Assembly: GCA_934271725.1 (NCBI GenBank)
Contig: CAKQSC010000001.1
Coordinates: forward strand, 1-52,221
DNA length: 52,221 nucleotides
Direction of reading: 5' to 3'
Origin: an uncultured Clostridia bacterium
GTDB taxonomy: Bacteria > Bacillota > Clostridia > Christensenellales > Borkfalkiaceae
Part shown: piece by piece, positions 82 through 35,956 of the stretch
Position numbering within the stretch: position 1 is the first letter of the stretch
How the letters are laid out: each line of letters begins with the position of its first letter
Program-made: the position numbers and the translations under genes
The notes under the pieces: model-generated
What the model was told of the DNA's origin: nothing
What the model saw: the letters and a program-made list of their open reading frames with translations, nothing else
The model's database searches: none

Positions 82-1032
82 TTATTCAGCCGTTTCTTCG
101 CTTTCTGTCGGTTGTTCCGTTTCTACGGGTACCCATTTAGCGTACATCGTCTTAACTTCCGTCGTAGGCGTCATTTGATTATCCCATTTGGTTACGCAGG
201 TATCTTCCGTATACCAACCGTCGAAAGTATACCCCTCTCTCGTCGGATTTGTAGGTAACACGAATACCGTGTTTTCGTCCTCGATAAGGTCTATCCAGTA
301 TATTCCCTCGTTCGGCGCGCCCTCGTAGTTGAAATTAAACACGTAGTTGGGCGTTGCAAAGTTTTCTATGAAAATATCAGGCGAGGAAGCGCCTCCGCCC
401 GCAACCCACTCGTTTCGCTCTTCCATCACCATATCGTAATGTTTCTGTGGCGCTATTGATAAAACACTGCTATTCGGACCGGAAAAATATGCCTCACAAT
501 ACAACTTTGTTCTTCCCGACGAAAATCCCGACATCGAATATATATTCGGAACGACTACTTGAAGTCTTTCGGAATAATACGTTCCTTCTTTCGCCTCAAA
601 AACATGACCATAATACATCCTATCGACCGTATACGGCAAATATAATTTTCTGATGTTTTTCCAGGAATCCGAAATAATACGGGAACCGCCTTTATAGTAA
701 GAATACTCTTGGTCAGCAACCAAACCTACGACTTCGTATTCTCCGTTTTTAATAACCTCGGGTATTACAACGACTTCCAAATCATCGCCCAACGTATCTA
801 TTTTAGAACCGGTTTCCTTATCGTATTTGGCAGGAAACAGATGATCGACATACGCCTTTTTCGTTTCTTTTACGCACAAGTACTTTATATTATTCTCTTC
901 ATAGAGAAAAGTTTTTGAGTTCGGATCATTCTCTTCTCCGGGACAATAGAAAGCGAACAGCATAGGAAATACGCACGCGCAAACGAGTATCGCCACAAAC
1001 AACAGTGAAAATAATTTGTTTCTTTTTTTCAT
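82..1032 (-). CDS. Membrane-anchored or secreted hypothetical protein with a C-terminal Listeria-Bacteroides (Flg_new-type) repeat
   Basis: ATG start preceded by an AGGAGG RBS. N-terminal hydrophobic segment LFSLLFVAILVCACVFPMLFAF. The C-terminal segment REGYTFDGWYTEDTCVTKWDNQMTPTTEVKTMYAKW fits the G-Y-x-F-x-G-W-Y...Y-A-x-W repeat pattern. The rest has no family I recognise. Confidence 0.6.
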   Translation of the reverse strand: MKKRNKLFSLLFVAILVCACVFPMLFAFYCPGEENDPNSKTFLYEENNIKYLCVKETKKAYVDHLFPAKYDKETGSKIDTLGDDLEVVVIPEVIKNGEYEVVGLVADQEYSYYKGGSRIISDSWKNIRKLYLPYTVDRMYYGHVFEAKEGTYYSERLQVVVPNIYSMSGFSSGRTKLYCEAYFSGPNSSVLSIAPQKHYDMVMEERNEWVAGGGASSPDIFIENFATPNYVFNFNYEGAPNEGIYWIDLIEDENTVFVLPTNPTREGYTFDGWYTEDTCVTKWDNQMTPTTEVKTMYAKWVPVETEQPTESEETAE

Positions 1033-30428: not shown

Positions 30429-30460
30429 AAAAAACGGCGGAAAAACTTTCCCCGCCGTTT
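30429..30460 (-). terminator. Rho-independent terminator ending the pilin-lipoprotein bicistron
   Basis: Stem AAACGGCGG (30432-30440) / CCGCCGTTT (30452-30460), followed by TTTTTTGT on the minus strand. Confidence 0.75.
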
Positions 30461-30473
30461 CGTTTTTATTTAG

Positions 30474-31817
30474 TTATTTAACAAGACCGCTTGCATTGTA
30501 TCTCGTGTTGTTGTTTACGAGAACGTACGTATAAGAGTTACCCTGATTTACGTTAATCGTTGCGGTAACCGCGCAGTCGCCCGAAATAACGGGTACGTTG
30601 ATTGCCTGCGTCATCGTCGCAAGTCCCGCCGTAAGATAATAAGCGTTCTTCACGTAAGGAACTTTAACGGTAGCCGTAAAGGGTTTGCTTATGGTAGCGT
30701 CGGTGAACAATTCGTCGTCGTTATATCTCGCGCCGGTAATCGTTCCCGCAACCTTACAAGTCGTAAGAGTTACGTTTGCGATTTGTCCCGTCTGACCAAC
30801 GATACCCGCGGAACGTCTGTATGCCGAAACGTTCGCATTTACATCGCAGTTTACGAAAGAAACGGTATCACCGCTCGTCTTATCCGCATTGCCTCTCGCC
30901 ATACCTACTACACCGCCTACGTCGTCGTAGCCCGCAACGGAACCGGTAACGGTAATGTTTTTGAACGTAGAATTACCCCAAGAATAGCCCGCAACCGCGC
31001 CTACCGCGTCGCCTACGATAACGATGTCTTCGTTGTTATTGTTCTTTACCGCTATTCTCGAATCTTCGATATCTACAACAAGTTTTATGTCGTGAATGTT
31101 CGCGCCGTATACGCAACCGAACAAACCGTAGTTGATTTCCATAGTACCTTTAACGGTAGTCGTGTTGGTACCCGTACTGTCCGTAACGTTGGAGTAAACC
31201 AAACCTTTGTTGGTCAAGCCTTTAATCGTATGTCCGTTTCCGTCGAACTCACCCTTGAACCACAAATCTTTGTTTTCCGCTTTACGATAAGTGTTGGAAA
31301 TAGGAATCCACGTCGTACCCGTCAAATCGATGTCCTCATCGAGTCTTACGACGGTGTTGGGCGAAATGTATTCCGCAACGCCCGCGTTTACGTTATCTCT
31401 GAAATTGTTCAAATCCGTAGCGTTTTTGATAACAAAAGTCTTAACGCCTACTACTTCGTACTGGAAGGTCGCGTAAACGGTGTCGTAACTTATGGTTGCC
31501 GTTCTTCTTGCTTCGTTTGATTCGGAAGAAAGGTCGAAGTTCGCTACGTCAAATTCGTACGTAGTGCCGTCCGCTTCGCCTACCAAAGTGCTAGCGTCCT
31601 TAAACGTAAGTTCAAGCGGTGTTGCCTTGCCGTCTTTCGTAAGAACGACTTTCATAAACGTTTCACCCGTTAAGTCCTCGTTAACGTGATATACTATTCT
31701 CGGGTAACGCGATATTCTCAAACTGTCCGTTGTATCGAATAACGAACAACCTACAAAACCGCAAACCGCAATCGCAAGCGTTAAAATTAACGCTATAAAG
31801 CCTACTTTTCTTTTCAT
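30474..31817 (-). CDS. Surface lipoprotein with GLUG-like / parallel beta-helix repeats
   Basis: Signal peptide plus lipobox (LTLAIAVCGFVGC|S). Motif FKGEFDGNGHTIKGL followed by repeated G-x-hydrophobic-G segments (YGLFGCVYG, VGAVAGYSWG, VGGVVGMARG, SAGIVGQTG), typical of GLUG-motif adhesin-like proteins. RBS AGGAGA, 33 nt after the pilin-like gene. Confidence 0.6.
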   Translation of the reverse strand: MKRKVGFIALILTLAIAVCGFVGCSLFDTTDSLRISRYPRIVYHVNEDLTGETFMKVVLTKDGKATPLELTFKDASTLVGEADGTTYEFDVANFDLSSESNEARRTATISYDTVYATFQYEVVGVKTFVIKNATDLNNFRDNVNAGVAEYISPNTVVRLDEDIDLTGTTWIPISNTYRKAENKDLWFKGEFDGNGHTIKGLTNKGLVYSNVTDSTGTNTTTVKGTMEINYGLFGCVYGANIHDIKLVVDIEDSRIAVKNNNNEDIVIVGDAVGAVAGYSWGNSTFKNITVTGSVAGYDDVGGVVGMARGNADKTSGDTVSFVNCDVNANVSAYRRSAGIVGQTGQIANVTLTTCKVAGTITGARYNDDELFTDATISKPFTATVKVPYVKNAYYLTAGLATMTQAINVPVISGDCAVTATINVNQGNSYTYVLVNNNTRYNASGLVK

Positions 31818-31850
31818 TGTTTATTTCTCCTTTAAAATATTTTACTGTTC

Positions 31851-33572
31851 TTATACCGTTTTGTTTGTCGGGAAAATGTTTAATTGATTAGAACGATATA
31901 TTTCCTTTTTAATTATGTTTTCACCGTCTTTAAGATTCATATATATTTTAACGCCTACAACCTTTATAACGGGGTTTTCGTCCGTTACTTCGTATTGTTC
32001 GCCGTCTTTAATAGTTTTCGCTTCTTCGCCGGATGCGACGAAGTCTGCCGCCGTTCCTTCCGAACCGCCTACCTGACTGCTTTTGAACTTACCCGTGATA
32101 TACGTGATTTCGTACGAGAATTCGTTTCCGACGTTCACGTCGTATTCCTTTCCCGCCCAATTTATTTTCGTTCCCGTATTCGCAATACCGTAATCGGGCA
32201 AATCGACGGACAACGTTCTTGCCGTTTTGTCTGTCGTAACCGTTTTAAGATCCGTCATTATGGTAACGTCGGACAATTTGTAAGTGTTCAACTTTTTGTC
32301 GACTACTACCATTGTAAACTTCATACCGTTGCCGATAAGTTCGGAACGAATGGTCGCGCTCGCCACCTTGTTTACGAAAGCGTCCGCGTTAAGTTGAATG
32401 GTCGGAACAAGAAACTCTCTTCCTATTCCCGTAATCGTCTGACCTTTACCGTTATAGTAACCTTTACCGTCAAGCAAAACTTCCGTTTCGATTATTCCGT
32501 CCGCGCCGTTGGTTATACCGTCCGCCGTATATGATATGCCCTTGCCGTCCGCCATGGTGCCGTACTCGAATCCCATTTTCTGATATCCGTAAATAACGGT
32601 ATACGCACCCGTCGGGAAAGGTTGACAACTCGTGTTGCCTTTGCTTACCTTATTGACAACGTCTATATTCGTCAAAGACGCTTTGTTCGTGTTGCAAAAA
32701 TCAAGAAACGCAATGCTCGTAGCAACGACTTTGACAGATTCGTTTGCACCCGAATCGGTCGTTTTTGACGAAACCACGCCGTGGAAAGAATCTTCGTTAC
32801 ACGCTATAACCGTAGCGGGAATTACTATTTCGTTTTTCGCTTTAAGCGTGCTTCCCGATGTTCTTGACGGAACACCCGTAAGACCGGGAACGACGTATAC
32901 GTAAGCCTCGCCGTCCGTTTTGCCTTTCCAACCGTCGTTGGTTATGTATGCGCAATTTTCTACCGAAAACTTTGCGAAATGGTTTTTCGCCGCCGCGACT
33001 ACCTTGCCGTCCGTACTTATCGATTCTATTCTCGATTTTATAACGTCTACCGTACCCGATTCTATCGCGTCGATAACCTGCGTCAAAGAGTTTTTGCCTT
33101 TTTCTATATAACGAATGTTTTTATTAGCGAAAAACGCTCTCGGTTCCAACGTGTCGGAATTATCTTCCGCTTCGTCGGCATACGCAACGACGATACCCGC
33201 GCTTGCGGTTGCGCCGTCCGACAGAGTACCGTTATTTTTAAGAACGTCGTCCGTCTTTTTAAAGTATACTCTGTTTTCCGCTCTGTTGTACCAGTAAGAA
33301 TACCCTTTGGCAGGGCTTTTTAAGCTGTATCCTGCCGACTCCGCCATATCTTCGAGTTCGTAGTCTTCGTAATACGTTCTGTCGTTGAATGCCGCTTCCG
33401 TGCCGAGTACGGTGGAAATCCTTAAAGCCGTAGTCGTGCCTTTCTGAATATTCGCTTTCTTTATGACGTTAGTAAGCGTCGGAACCAGAATAGCGGCAAG
33501 CACCGCGATGACCGCGATTACGATTGCAAGTTCGACGAGAGTAAACCCCCGTCTTTTCTTTTTCTGCATCAT
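31851..33572 (-). CDS. Large (573-aa) protein with a type IV prepilin-type N-terminal cleavage/methylation signal
   Basis: N-terminus MMQKKKRRG|FTLVELAIVIAVIAVLAAILVP is a canonical class III signal (Gly-1, Phe+1, Glu+5). RBS is AAAGGAGA. The remaining roughly 530 aa have no family I recognise. Confidence 0.75.
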   Translation of the reverse strand: MMQKKKRRGFTLVELAIVIAVIAVLAAILVPTLTNVIKKANIQKGTTTALRISTVLGTEAAFNDRTYYEDYELEDMAESAGYSLKSPAKGYSYWYNRAENRVYFKKTDDVLKNNGTLSDGATASAGIVVAYADEAEDNSDTLEPRAFFANKNIRYIEKGKNSLTQVIDAIESGTVDVIKSRIESISTDGKVVAAAKNHFAKFSVENCAYITNDGWKGKTDGEAYVYVVPGLTGVPSRTSGSTLKAKNEIVIPATVIACNEDSFHGVVSSKTTDSGANESVKVVATSIAFLDFCNTNKASLTNIDVVNKVSKGNTSCQPFPTGAYTVIYGYQKMGFEYGTMADGKGISYTADGITNGADGIIETEVLLDGKGYYNGKGQTITGIGREFLVPTIQLNADAFVNKVASATIRSELIGNGMKFTMVVVDKKLNTYKLSDVTIMTDLKTVTTDKTARTLSVDLPDYGIANTGTKINWAGKEYDVNVGNEFSYEITYITGKFKSSQVGGSEGTAADFVASGEEAKTIKDGEQYEVTDENPVIKVVGVKIYMNLKDGENIIKKEIYRSNQLNIFPTNKTV

Positions 33573-33619
33573 ATTTCTCCTTTTACATCATATTTCATCA
33601 AACTTGCATCTTTTTTACC

Positions 33620-33649
33620 ATTATACCCCCCCCCCTTATCAAAAATCAA
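33620..33649 (-). promoter_or_regulatory. Promoter of the pilin-like gene, with a homopolymeric G10 spacer
   Basis: The minus strand reads TTGATT (33644-33649), an 18-nt spacer that includes G10, then TATAAT (33620-33625). A-tracts lie at about -38 to -57. Confidence 0.6.
33626..33635. repeat. Homopolymer tract C10 (G10 on the coding strand)
   Basis: Ten consecutive C residues counted directly at 33626-33635. A complementary G7 tract lies at 33709-33715. Confidence 0.95.
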
Positions 33650-33804
33650 GTGTTTTTTACATTTTTTTTACTTAACAGCCGAATTTCTACGATTTTTTTA
33701 CAAAAAAAGGGGGGGTGGTCGTTTTTACACCGTTTGCCTTGTAAACCTGTCTATTGCGTTACCCGACTATACATTATATTTACTTTGTCGCGTAATATTG
33801 ACAA

Positions 33805-33838
33805 TAAAAAAAGGATGCCGAAAAAAACCGCATCCTTT
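33805..33838 (-). terminator. Rho-independent terminator after pnp
   Basis: Stem AAAGGATGC (33810-33818) / GCATCCTTT (33830-33838), followed by a T-run on the minus strand. Confidence 0.75.
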
Positions 33839-33862
33839 GTAAAATATTTTATTTAGTTTTTA

Positions 33863-35956
33863 TCAGTTCAACTTTTCAAGAAGTTTAAGGTCTATTCCCT
33901 TTTCGCCTATCTTGATTATTTCAACTTTTACCTTATCGCCTATGCTCAACACTTCGTCTACGCTGTTGATTCTCTTTTCGCTCATCTTGGAAATGTGAAT
34001 CATACCGTCTTTTCCGGGAGCGAGTTCGCAGAACGCGCCTACCTTGGGCAGTATTCTTACTACTTCGCTTATGAACATATCGCCGACTTCGGGATCTTTC
34101 GCAATGGAAAGAACAATCGCTTTCGCTCTTTCGGCTGCGTCTACCGAGCCGACAGACGCTATCGATACCATTCCGTCGTCTTCGATGTTAATCTTCGCGC
34201 CCGTTTCTTCGATTATCTTGTTGATGACTTTTCCGCCGCTGCCGATAACTTCTCTTATCTTGTCGGGGTTAATCATAAAACTGATAATTCTGGGAGCATA
34301 TTTGGACAATTCCTTGTTGGGTTCGGGTATGCAGGCAAGCATCTTCTTTAAAATCTGTTGTCTGCCTACGTTCGCCTGAGCGATTGCCTGACGCAAAATA
34401 GCCTCGTCTATACCTTTAATCTTTATGTCCATCTGTATAGCCGTGATGCCCTTTTCGGTACCCGCTACCTTAAAGTCCATATCGCCGAAGAAATCTTCAA
34501 GCCCCTGAATGTCCGTAAGAACGGAAACTTTTCCGCTTTCGACGTCCTTGATAAGTCCCATAGCGATGCCCGCAACGGGACGAGTGATGGGAACGCCCGC
34601 GTCCATAAGAGCAAGGGTGGAACCGCAAACGCTCGCCTGAGAAGTCGAACCGTTGGAACTCAACACTTCGCTTACCACTCTTATCGCGTACGGGAACTCT
34701 TCTATGCTCGGAATAACCGGTTCGAGAGCGCGTTCCGCAAGCGCGCCGTGTCCTATCTCTCTGCGTCCGGGGCTTTTAAGAGGTCTTGCCTCGCCGGAAG
34801 CGTAACCGGGCATGTTATATTGATGCATATATCTCTTTTCGTCCTCGTTGTCGAGTCCTTCGAGTCTTTGCGCTTCGTCCATAGTGCCGAGAGTACAGGT
34901 CGTCAATACCTGCGTTTGTCCTCTCGTGAAAACGCCCGTGCCGTGAACTCTCGGAAGTACCCCGTGTTCGCACCATATAGGTCTTATTTCCGTAAGTTTT
35001 CTTCCGTCCGGACGAATACCGTCTTTCGTGATTTTTGCTCTTACCTTTTCTTTCGTAAGGTAATATAATGCGTCTTTGATTTCTCTTTCCATATCGGGAT
35101 ATATATCCGCAAAATGGTTGAGCGTGTCTTCCGTAACTTTATCTTCCGCAACCTGACGGTCGTGTCTGTCGTAGTTTTCAAGCGCGTCGTCAAGCATTGC
35201 TCCCGCATAGTCTCTTACCGCTTTGTCGATTTCTTCGGGAACGTGATAGAGAGCCATTTCCTTTTTGGGCTTGCCTATCGCTTTGACTATCTCTTCCTGA
35301 AAAGCGCATTGTTTTTTGATTTCTTCGTGTCCGAACAAAATTGCACCGACCATTTCGTCGTCGCTTATTTCTTTCGCGCCCGCTTCAACCATCATTATTG
35401 CGTCTTTCGTGCCGGCGAGGTTAAGCGCAAGCGTGCTTTTTTCTTTTTGTTTAAGGTCGGGGTTGATAACGTATTCGCCGTCGACAATCGCTACTACTAC
35501 GCTTCCCGTAGGCCCCGCAAAGGGTATGTCCGAAATGGAAAGCGCGATTGAACTGCCTAACATTGCAAGCGGTTCGGGAGCGACGTCGGGATCAACCGAC
35601 AAAGCCGTCGCGATAACGGATACGTCGTTGAAAAGTCCTTTCGGGAAAAGGGGACGGAGCGGTCTGTCGATAAGTCTTGACGTTAAAATCGCCTTGTCGC
35701 TCGCTCTACCTTCTCTCTTTTTAAACCCGCCGGGTATTTTGCCGATTGCGTACATTTTTTCTTCGTAGTCTACGCCGAGCGGGAAGTAGTCCATTCCCGG
35801 ACGGGGTTCCGCGCCCATGGTAACGTTTACCATAACCGCCGTTTCGCCGCATCTTACGACGCAGGATCCGTTCGTTTGTCCGCAGTATTTGCCCGTTTCG
35901 ATAACGACTTCTCTTCCGCCGATGACGGTCTTAAACTCTCTGTAAGTGTCTGTCAT
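33863..35956 (-). CDS. pnp: Polyribonucleotide nucleotidyltransferase (PNPase)
   Basis: 697 aa. Two RNase PH domains, a KH domain and an S1 domain, with a typical N-terminus (...IGGREVVIETGKYCGQTNGS). Confidence 0.97.
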   Translation of the reverse strand: MTDTYREFKTVIGGREVVIETGKYCGQTNGSCVVRCGETAVMVNVTMGAEPRPGMDYFPLGVDYEEKMYAIGKIPGGFKKREGRASDKAILTSRLIDRPLRPLFPKGLFNDVSVIATALSVDPDVAPEPLAMLGSSIALSISDIPFAGPTGSVVVAIVDGEYVINPDLKQKEKSTLALNLAGTKDAIMMVEAGAKEISDDEMVGAILFGHEEIKKQCAFQEEIVKAIGKPKKEMALYHVPEEIDKAVRDYAGAMLDDALENYDRHDRQVAEDKVTEDTLNHFADIYPDMEREIKDALYYLTKEKVRAKITKDGIRPDGRKLTEIRPIWCEHGVLPRVHGTGVFTRGQTQVLTTCTLGTMDEAQRLEGLDNEDEKRYMHQYNMPGYASGEARPLKSPGRREIGHGALAERALEPVIPSIEEFPYAIRVVSEVLSSNGSTSQASVCGSTLALMDAGVPITRPVAGIAMGLIKDVESGKVSVLTDIQGLEDFFGDMDFKVAGTEKGITAIQMDIKIKGIDEAILRQAIAQANVGRQQILKKMLACIPEPNKELSKYAPRIISFMINPDKIREVIGSGGKVINKIIEETGAKINIEDDGMVSIASVGSVDAAERAKAIVLSIAKDPEVGDMFISEVVRILPKVGAFCELAPGKDGMIHISKMSEKRINSVDEVLSIGDKVKVEIIKIGEKGIDLKLLEKLN

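Follow-up and report, generated by a model that had tools for sequence, protein, structure and literature searches.

In Neisseria meningitidis, a poly-G tract lies between the -35 and -10 elements of the porA promoter and the length of the spacer sets expression (as summarized in PMC7864442). A poly-G tract occupies the same position in the promoter of Treponema pallidum tp0126, where expression is best with a spacer of 17 nucleotides (nt), and in single isolates the poly-G tracts upstream of tprE/G/J and tprL range between 7 and 11, one length being dominant (PMC7864442). Here, we analyzed a candidate promoter of the same construction in a 52,221-nt stretch of DNA from an uncultured Clostridia bacterium (contig CAKQSC010000001.1; the whole stretch is called the window). 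In this candidate, a run of 10 G's (G10) stands between predicted -35 and -10 hexamers upstream of a gene for a 573-amino-acid (573-aa) protein with a prepilin signal. We find it somewhat better than an even bet that this slippage-prone G run sets the spacer length of a sigma-A-type promoter and provides a transcription dial for a surface operon. The locus would most likely be an amplitude dial as at porA/tp0126, with a clade and a downstream gene type that are both new.

Like the candidate described here, porA has a G tract of ∼9 to 11 in a sigma-70-type spacer upstream of a surface antigen gene, and one-unit changes alter the amount of transcription. However, porA encodes a porin of a Gram-negative pathogen, and measurements exist of how it switches and of what this does to expression, whereas the present locus is known from sequence alone and belongs to an uncultured spore-forming gut Clostridia bacterium, in which the tract precedes the gene of a giant prepilin-signal protein. 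As in the Treponema tracts, one or two lengths dominate, but those tracts serve outer membrane proteins of a spirochaete and their within-isolate variation was established by fragment-length analysis. In Streptococcus pyogenes M28, the T-tract of Spy1336/R28-Spy1337 consists of 9 or 10 T's in nearly all strains, and 1-nt indels change transcript levels (PMC7098570). This is likewise a regulatory homopolymer of a surface adhesin in a Firmicute, with two adjacent lengths, but it lies between direct repeats of a divergent regulatory region and not in a core spacer, it belongs to a pathogen of the Bacilli, and it has been tested experimentally.

Two further systems concern Gram-positive gut bacteria. 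In the commensal Bifidobacterium breve, replication slippage of an intragenic G tract governs sortase-dependent pili (PMC9187656). That tract acts by a frameshift that turns a coding sequence ON or OFF, in an actinobacterium and for sortase pili, whereas here the tract lies in a promoter spacer. Clostridioides difficile varies cwpV, flgB, cmrRST, and pdcB/pdcC by site-specific inversion (PMC11868660, PMC9286219, and PMC5386303). It belongs to the same class as our bacterium and also gains surface and motility heterogeneity from a heritable, reversible DNA change; however, what changes there is the orientation of a promoter or leader that lies between inverted repeats, and we found no conserved repeats or recombinase at the locus studied here. 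In Mycoplasma hyorhinis, a poly-A tract in the -35/-10 spacer reportedly controls the vlp surface lipoproteins. TA repeats in the -35/-10 spacer of Haemophilus influenzae hifA/hifB control fimbriae (work cited in PMC5084427). The hif and vlp systems differ from the present locus in repeat unit or base and in taxon, and both have been verified experimentally.

To our knowledge, heritable heterogeneity in gut commensals has been mapped almost wholly via invertible promoters, mainly in Bacteroidales and C. difficile. A review asks whether repeat-driven contingency loci are truly confined to pathogens or have gone unsought elsewhere (PMC11868660). Neither for Clostridia nor for a prepilin-type gene did our literature search return a promoter spacer made of a homopolymer, which is not proof of absence. 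An earlier note on this DNA had presented the arrangement as undescribed for pilin genes of Clostridia-type Firmicutes; the clade and gene type are new, but poly-G spacers and homopolymer control in Firmicutes were already known, and the mechanism is unsurprising to a specialist. If our reading is correct, it would extend the repeat-driven mechanism to commensal Clostridia, and it would mark out the operon as a likely phage receptor or target of antibody.

On the minus strand, the sequence upstream of the pilin-like gene is cacTTGATTtttgataaGGGGGGGGGGTATAATggtaaaaaag, identical to that quoted earlier. The anatomy of the candidate promoter was obtained directly from it:

33644..33649, minus strand: -35 hexamer TTGATT, from the sequence and a consensus scan; the same in every syntenic contig
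33636..33643, minus strand: nonrepeat part of the spacer, tttgataa (8 nt); tttgacaa or ttttacaa elsewhere, and tttgataaaaa in the L003 lineage
33626..33635, minus strand: G10 run, listed as C10 on the plus strand in the homopolymer census; the part of the spacer that varies
33620..33625, minus strand: -10 hexamer TATAAT, unchanged across all contigs
33612..33614, minus strand: predicted transcription start, an A 6 to 8 nt past the -10 hexamer, placed by sigma-70/sigma-A geometry
33653..33658 and 33662..33669, minus strand: A6 tract (∼-40 to -45) and A8 tract (∼-49 to -56), resembling an UP element, with a putative function
33576..33583, minus strand: ribosome-binding site (RBS) AAAGGAGA, conserved between lineages

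The -35/-10 spacer measures 18 nt (8 + 10). The earlier description of a G10 run in an 18-nt spacer between TTGATT and TATAAT was exact, and the A-tracts, the RBS, and the ATG were also placed where inspection of the sequence puts them. Tandem ATGs stand at 33572 and 33569, downstream of the RBS. The A-tracts are present in all lineages, although rearranged in contigs L002 and L034. A consensus scan of 33300 to 34000 called TTGATT-18-TATAAT as the sole site, with 10 of 12 matches.

Runs of G or C are scarce in the window. The census found just four of at least 6 nt in 52,221 bases (C6, G6, G7, and C10) and none besides the C10 of at least 8, which bore out the remark that no other G/C run in the window reaches this length, the next longest being 7. 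Runs of at least 10 are expected ∼0.05 times in the window under both order-0 and order-1 models, and C runs of at least 7 are depleted (1 observed versus ∼3 expected). That a genome that avoids G/C runs keeps one exactly at this position suggests that the properties of the tract are used.

Copies of the locus were found by exact-protein look-ups with four kinds of query, namely, rpsO, the 572-aa product of the pilin-like gene (counted from the second ATG), the cluster relatives of this product, and a deacetylase gene of the neighborhood. The locus from pnp to the pilin-like gene was present in 17 metagenome assemblies (ENA and Logan) of human gut and other gut origin. The L030 locus is 100% identical to the window and probably the source from which it derives, and the others are 94 to 99.97% identical over 7.7 to 10 kilobases (kb). 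Thirteen contigs, which come from MEGAHIT, SPAdes-style, and Logan assemblies, span the tract, and the run is uninterrupted in 13/13 and never shorter than 9 or longer than 10. It is G10, with an 18-nt spacer, in 7 contigs (window/L030, L005, L002, L034, L031, L037, and L038) and G9 in 6, five of which have a 17-nt spacer (L004, L007, L033, L035, and L036). In the sixth, L003, three additional A's precede G9 (A5G9 in tttgataaaaa; L003:7750-7790), resulting in a 20-nt spacer.

Each assembler type yielded both lengths, and both were found on flanks of the GATAA as well as the GACAA haplotype; a neighbor-joining tree of the flanks requires at least 3 independent changes between 9 and 10. The window and L004/L007, for example, share the same spacer flanks but carry G10 and G9, respectively. 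The length is thus polymorphic between lineages and not invariant between populations, and the 17-nt spacer that had been predicted to follow from the loss of one G is found in nature. Around the tract, the hexamers, the upstream A-tracts, the RBS, and the 5' untranslated region (UTR) are kept across lineages, whereas 24% of the ungapped intergenic columns are substituted. The natural variation between 9 and 10 fits a change in level better than ON/OFF switching, because 17- and 18-nt spacers both normally work. The 20-nt-spacer lineage of L003 would be the sole candidate for a low or OFF allele.

Two broader scans gave no additional copy. A Joint Genome Institute (JGI) metagenome scan with CTTGATTTTT-N6-30-TATAATRGTAAAAAA returned 15 matches, each an unrelated promoter of the ordinary kind, with no copy of the locus among them, and a viral-contig scan for G9TATAATRGTAAAAAA returned no match.

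In 4 of the 17 assemblies, the tract itself is a breakpoint: five contig ends fall within its 10 nt (L006, L041, L032, L042, and L043). The 3' end of L006 reads ...GATAAAGG, L041 from the same sample starts with AAAAG9TATAAT, and the two ends are irreconcilable. L032 starts with GGGGTATAAT and L042 with G10TATAAT. L043, which comes from a third sample and belongs to the 20-nt-spacer lineage, starts with GGGTGGTATAAT, and its contig end reads GGGTGG; in this lineage, 2 of 3 assemblies are interrupted at the tract. Of L031 and L032, which show no other difference, one runs through the tract and the other stops at it. By our rough estimate, the chance of a contig end in a 10- to 13-nt target is ∼0.2%, so breaks inside the tract are far more common than chance. 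The L006, L041, and L043 ends stem from a genuine mixture at the A/G boundary or, alternatively, from noise in the sequencing. This recurrent breakpoint (4/17 assemblies) matters for the contiguity of metagenome-assembled genomes (MAGs), and tract breakage possibly explains why pnp-linked copies of the locus are absent from a scan of species-representative genomes.

We considered whether the run itself, or its length differences, might be produced by sequencing chemistry, polishing, or assembler error, and rate the chance of this as close to negligible. Poly-G is error-prone on Illumina two-color chemistry, and the five contig ends in the tract, including the one that reads GGGTGG, are of the kind that such errors would leave. 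However, in 13 contigs from at least 3 assembler types the tract lies away from the contig ends, between flanks that are unique and conserved, each assembler type yields both lengths, near-identical contig pairs reproduce the length, and an analogous G11-TATAAT exists in a GTDB MAG of another species. The suspicion of an assembly artifact, raised together with the original observation, can be put aside, given a run uninterrupted in 13 contigs from different assemblers.

We infer that the two hexamers form a working promoter, that tract length affects expression, and that the length switches frequently within populations. In the mechanism that we propose, slipped-strand mispairing at replication would add or remove one G, and each G step would reset how far apart the -35 and -10 hexamers lie: G9 would give 17 nt, G10 18 nt, and lengths beyond these 16 nt or 19 to 20 nt. 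Each step would also turn the hexamers relative to one another and so alter the binding of RNA polymerase. An effect of tract length on output would be expected, since sigma-70-type promoters are known to depend on the length of their spacers. The tract would then tune transcription of the operon, heritably and reversibly, with graded output from the 9/10 step and near OFF states from larger excursions. A population would hold cells with differing amounts of a surface structure that is likely seen by phages or host antibody.

A serious alternative, which we regard as possible rather than probable, is that the G run is a fixed element of the promoter and that G9 and G10 are near-neutral within the 17- to 18-nt range, the length drifting slowly on an evolutionary time scale. 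A stiff block of G/C that fixes basal strength might be one such element, and a protein-binding site another. A number of our results favor a fixed element or otherwise weigh against a dial. Only two lengths, G9 and G10, were found, and their spacers of 17 and 18 nt are both normally functional. Five near-identical contig pairs from different assemblies (window/L005, L002/L034, L035/L036, L037/L038, and L004/L007) all agree in tract length, some of which may be one sample assembled twice and not independent. Wherever two lineages differ in tract length, they carry further differences in the intergenic region, and this holds even for the closest length-differing pair, the window and L004. Furthermore, 6 of the 11 intergenic homopolymers of at least 6 nt differ between lineages, mostly by substitution, and we consequently rejected the idea that the tract stands alone in its variability. 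At the local substitution density, nine columns in succession free of substitution have a probability (P) of ∼0.08, so the claim that conservation of the tract alone reveals purifying selection was dropped as not significant within the species. Shuffles of 33300 to 34000 yield a mean of 1.0 site like TTGATT-18-TATAAT, and the hexamer match alone is not significant. The breaks at G10, finally, could stem from Illumina error or from loss of coverage at poly-G.

On the other side, a G run of 9 to 10 is intrinsically prone to slippage, as is established for simple sequence repeats, and a slowly drifting element sits poorly with a genome that otherwise avoids G/C runs. It must also accommodate at least 3 independent length changes and a lineage with a 20-nt spacer, as well as contig breaks at the tract with disagreeing ends in one sample, and no regulator is known or predicted. 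We retain the slippage-driven dial as the better explanation, although the evidence for fast switching is weak.

The tract might also act otherwise than as a promoter spacer, for example, as a hairpin with an upstream C7T7 tract, as part of an invertible segment, as a riboswitch leader, or within a promoter of another sigma factor. We consider this very unlikely. An inverted repeat, ACCCCCCCCCCTT/AAGGGGGGGTGGT, of 13 nt and 92% complementary, with arms 69 nt apart, would speak for such a role, as would GGGTATAAT, which loosely resembles a forespore sigma-F -10 element (consensus GGnnAnAnT), but the pnp terminator upstream limits read-through into the region.

The individual candidates were rejected as follows. 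For the C7T7/G-tract hairpin, most lineages carry C4, the pairing is not conserved, and the fold of the region, with a z score of -0.92, does not outdo shuffles. For an inverton, the sole flanking inverted repeat is the low-complexity C7T7/A2G10 pair, which is lineage specific and excludes the -10 hexamer; no recombinase gene was found near the locus. A riboswitch or other known RNA, such as one of the cyclic di-GMP (c-di-GMP) riboswitches by which clostridial pilin genes are controlled, was dismissed as Rfam gave no match at gathering thresholds in the window, and at E values up to 1, a search of 33400 to 33950 and of the leader of the related locus L001 (see below) returned noise only. The sigma-F reading of GGGTATAAT failed for want of a matching -35 element at the right distance. 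A start inside the G run, with reiterative transcription like that of pyrG, was discarded because no acceptable -10 element lies upstream of the run. Lastly, we reasoned that a single run of 10 G's is too short for the four G-pairs and loops of an intramolecular G-quadruplex.

Among species-representative genomes, the sole match was L001, a sister species (GTDB MAG CAKQQS010000004.1) whose ortholog of the pilin-like protein is 66% identical. L001 carries the same two-gene cassette as the window, a pilin-like gene followed by a lipoprotein gene, but not adjoining pnp. An ortholog of the L001 type is carried by 12 contigs. On the strand of the gene, 712 nt upstream of the ATG of the ortholog, we found cTTGCAAaattgcac-G11-TATAAT (L001:2258-2289), with TTGCAA 19 nt upstream of the TATAAT that abuts G11. 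The flanks could not be aligned with the intergenic region of the window. In our judgment, chance cannot account for a G11 that adjoins a -10 box upstream of the ortholog, and the G-run/-10 module would be either old or have arisen twice. The conserved junction of G run and TATAAT amid diverged flanks could mean a sequence-specific role, which would favor the fixed element discussed above. A perfect TTGACA-17-TATAAT also lies at 2803-2831 of L001, nearer to the gene (170 nt upstream). Tentatively, we suggest that the G-run/-10 module serves as a contingency promoter, conserved across species of spore-forming gut Clostridia and moving together with a hypervariable pilin-like/lipoprotein cassette, which adjoins pnp in the species of the window and lies elsewhere, with G11, in the sister species. 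In that case, no repeat-driven locus with variable phase or amplitude would have been described before in commensal Clostridia, and bet-hedging in expression would be combined with allelic replacement of the exposed domain, in evasion of phage or secretory antibody. The ∼700-nt interval in L001 is without a convincing open reading frame (ORF) and is rich in periodic A-tracts.

The boundaries of the operon behind the tract were likewise obtained directly:

31851..33572, minus strand: gene for the 573-aa prepilin-signal protein (572 aa from the second ATG), matching PF07963 and TIGR02532
30474..31817, minus strand: gene for a 447-aa protein with a lipoprotein-type signal and the lipobox FVGC, without a known family in Pfam or NCBIfam
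30431..30461, minus strand: intrinsic terminator of the operon, a 14-base-pair (14-bp) stem followed by a T run
33805..33838, minus strand: pnp terminator, inverted repeat I11 with a T run, conserved between lineages

The two genes are separated by 33 nt, and the lipoprotein gene follows the pilin-like gene at every locus, L001 included. They appear to form an insulated two-gene transcription unit, since the pnp terminator stands upstream and the operon has its own 14-bp-stem terminator downstream, and the G-run promoter is, as judged from the sequence, its only candidate promoter. Gene calls in public data place the start of the pilin-like gene at the second ATG, for a length of 572 aa, which accounts for the empty exact-protein look-up with the 573-aa form; the look-up with pnp was empty as well.

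The pilin-like protein has a prepilin class III signal, RRG|FTLVELAIVIAVIAVLAAILVP (motif RRG|FTLVE), with hits to PF07963 N_methyl (E = 4.4e-8; 32.8 bits versus a cutoff of 21.2) and TIGR02532 (28.1 versus a cutoff of 16.3). The first 60 residues of the 572-aa protein match solved pilins. An AlphaFold (AF2) model, with a predicted local distance difference test (pLDDT) score of 65, consists of a long helix (residues 11 to 62) followed by beta-rich domains. The C-terminal ∼510 aa have no Pfam or NCBIfam family, and a Foldseek search of the PDB with the AF2 model gave no match at E < 0.01 (best E = 0.011). Beyond residue 60, a search of 1.84 billion representative proteins gave only 27 relatives at E ≤ 0.001; almost all of these are likewise large and align from about residue 60. 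Typical pilins are ∼100 to 200 aa in total. The product is, by prediction, pilin-like at its N terminus but not a typical pilin, because it has 572 aa and lacks a compact head domain of a recognized family or fold. From their signals, we infer that both operon proteins are exposed at the surface. No gene for a prepilin peptidase or for an assembly ATPase or platform protein was found within the 52-kb window.

Both genes of the operon are strikingly variable. Between the window and L004, the flanks are 98 to 100% identical, whereas the C-terminal two-thirds of the pilin-like gene (∼33100 to 31800) is 54 to 67% identical and part of the lipoprotein gene (∼31200 to 31500) is 72% identical. Alleles that are merely 68 to 69% identical stand behind one and the same promoter. 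In L037 and L038, the pilin-like gene is identical, and differences are confined to the lipoprotein gene and the upstream homopolymers. The two genes thus have the appearance of a recombination-driven hypervariable surface cassette, and as a target, the operon would fit the pattern of a contingency locus.

The rest of the window is devoted to housekeeping. The genes ruvB, queA, tgt, yajC, secDF, recJ, relA, rpsO, and pnp precede the two-gene operon, and beyond it lie genes for a ylxY-like polysaccharide deacetylase and an M16 peptidase, followed by ispG, rimP, nusA, infB, rbfA, truB, ribF, efp, der, the SpoIVA gene, and fusA. The SpoIVA gene helps to place the host among spore-forming gut Clostridia. 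The cassette (region 30474 to 33862) sits between pnp and the genes for the ylxY-like deacetylase and the M16 peptidase, which adjoin pnp in the gene order of Bacillus subtilis, rpsO-pnpA-ylxY-mlpA. The cassette has moved, because the sister species carries it at another chromosomal site.

The intergenic region that holds the candidate promoter has further features. A second compound tract precedes the G run:

33702..33715, minus strand: C7T7 tract, ∼90 nt upstream of the predicted transcription start; its C7 lies at 33715-33709 and reads G7 on the plus strand

The C7 run lies 74 nt upstream of G10 in the same intergenic region, and 2 of the 4 G/C runs of at least 6 nt in the window fall within this one region of 290 nt. 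The A/C composition of the C7T7 tract differs by lineage (for example, ACCACCCCCCC, ACTACCCC, AAAACCCC, and AAACCCCCCC), and L037 and L038 are unlike in this tract despite having identical pilin-like genes. The promoter-spacer explanation does not need the C7T7 tract. Just past the pnp terminator, at 33765-33800 on the minus strand, there is a TTGTCA-20 nt-TATAAT pair, which was not called by the scan; its hexamers are conserved and its 20-nt spacer is variable.

In the predicted transcript, the 5' UTR segment UGCAAGUUUGAUGA (33595-33608) is complementary to UCGUCGAACUUGCA (33525-33538), both read on the minus strand, the latter covering codons ∼12 to 16 and encoding the conserved LVELA pilin motif. 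The pairing would leave the RBS and the start codon inside a large loop; the fold has a z score of -3.06, and 2 of 200 shuffles were equally stable. This pairing could be a 5' stabilizer or a translational control element. The 5' stem begins at 33608, which agrees with the transcription start predicted at 33612-33614.

At the edge of the window, a 316-aa ORF (82-1032, minus strand) contains a Listeria-Bacteroides repeat (Flg_new, PF09479) and probably encodes another surface protein. Among nonoverlapping ORFs of at least 90 aa, 43 of 45 are on the minus strand, and on the plus strand T exceeds A and C exceeds G, a bias that fits a leading-strand segment far from the switch points at the replication origin and terminus.

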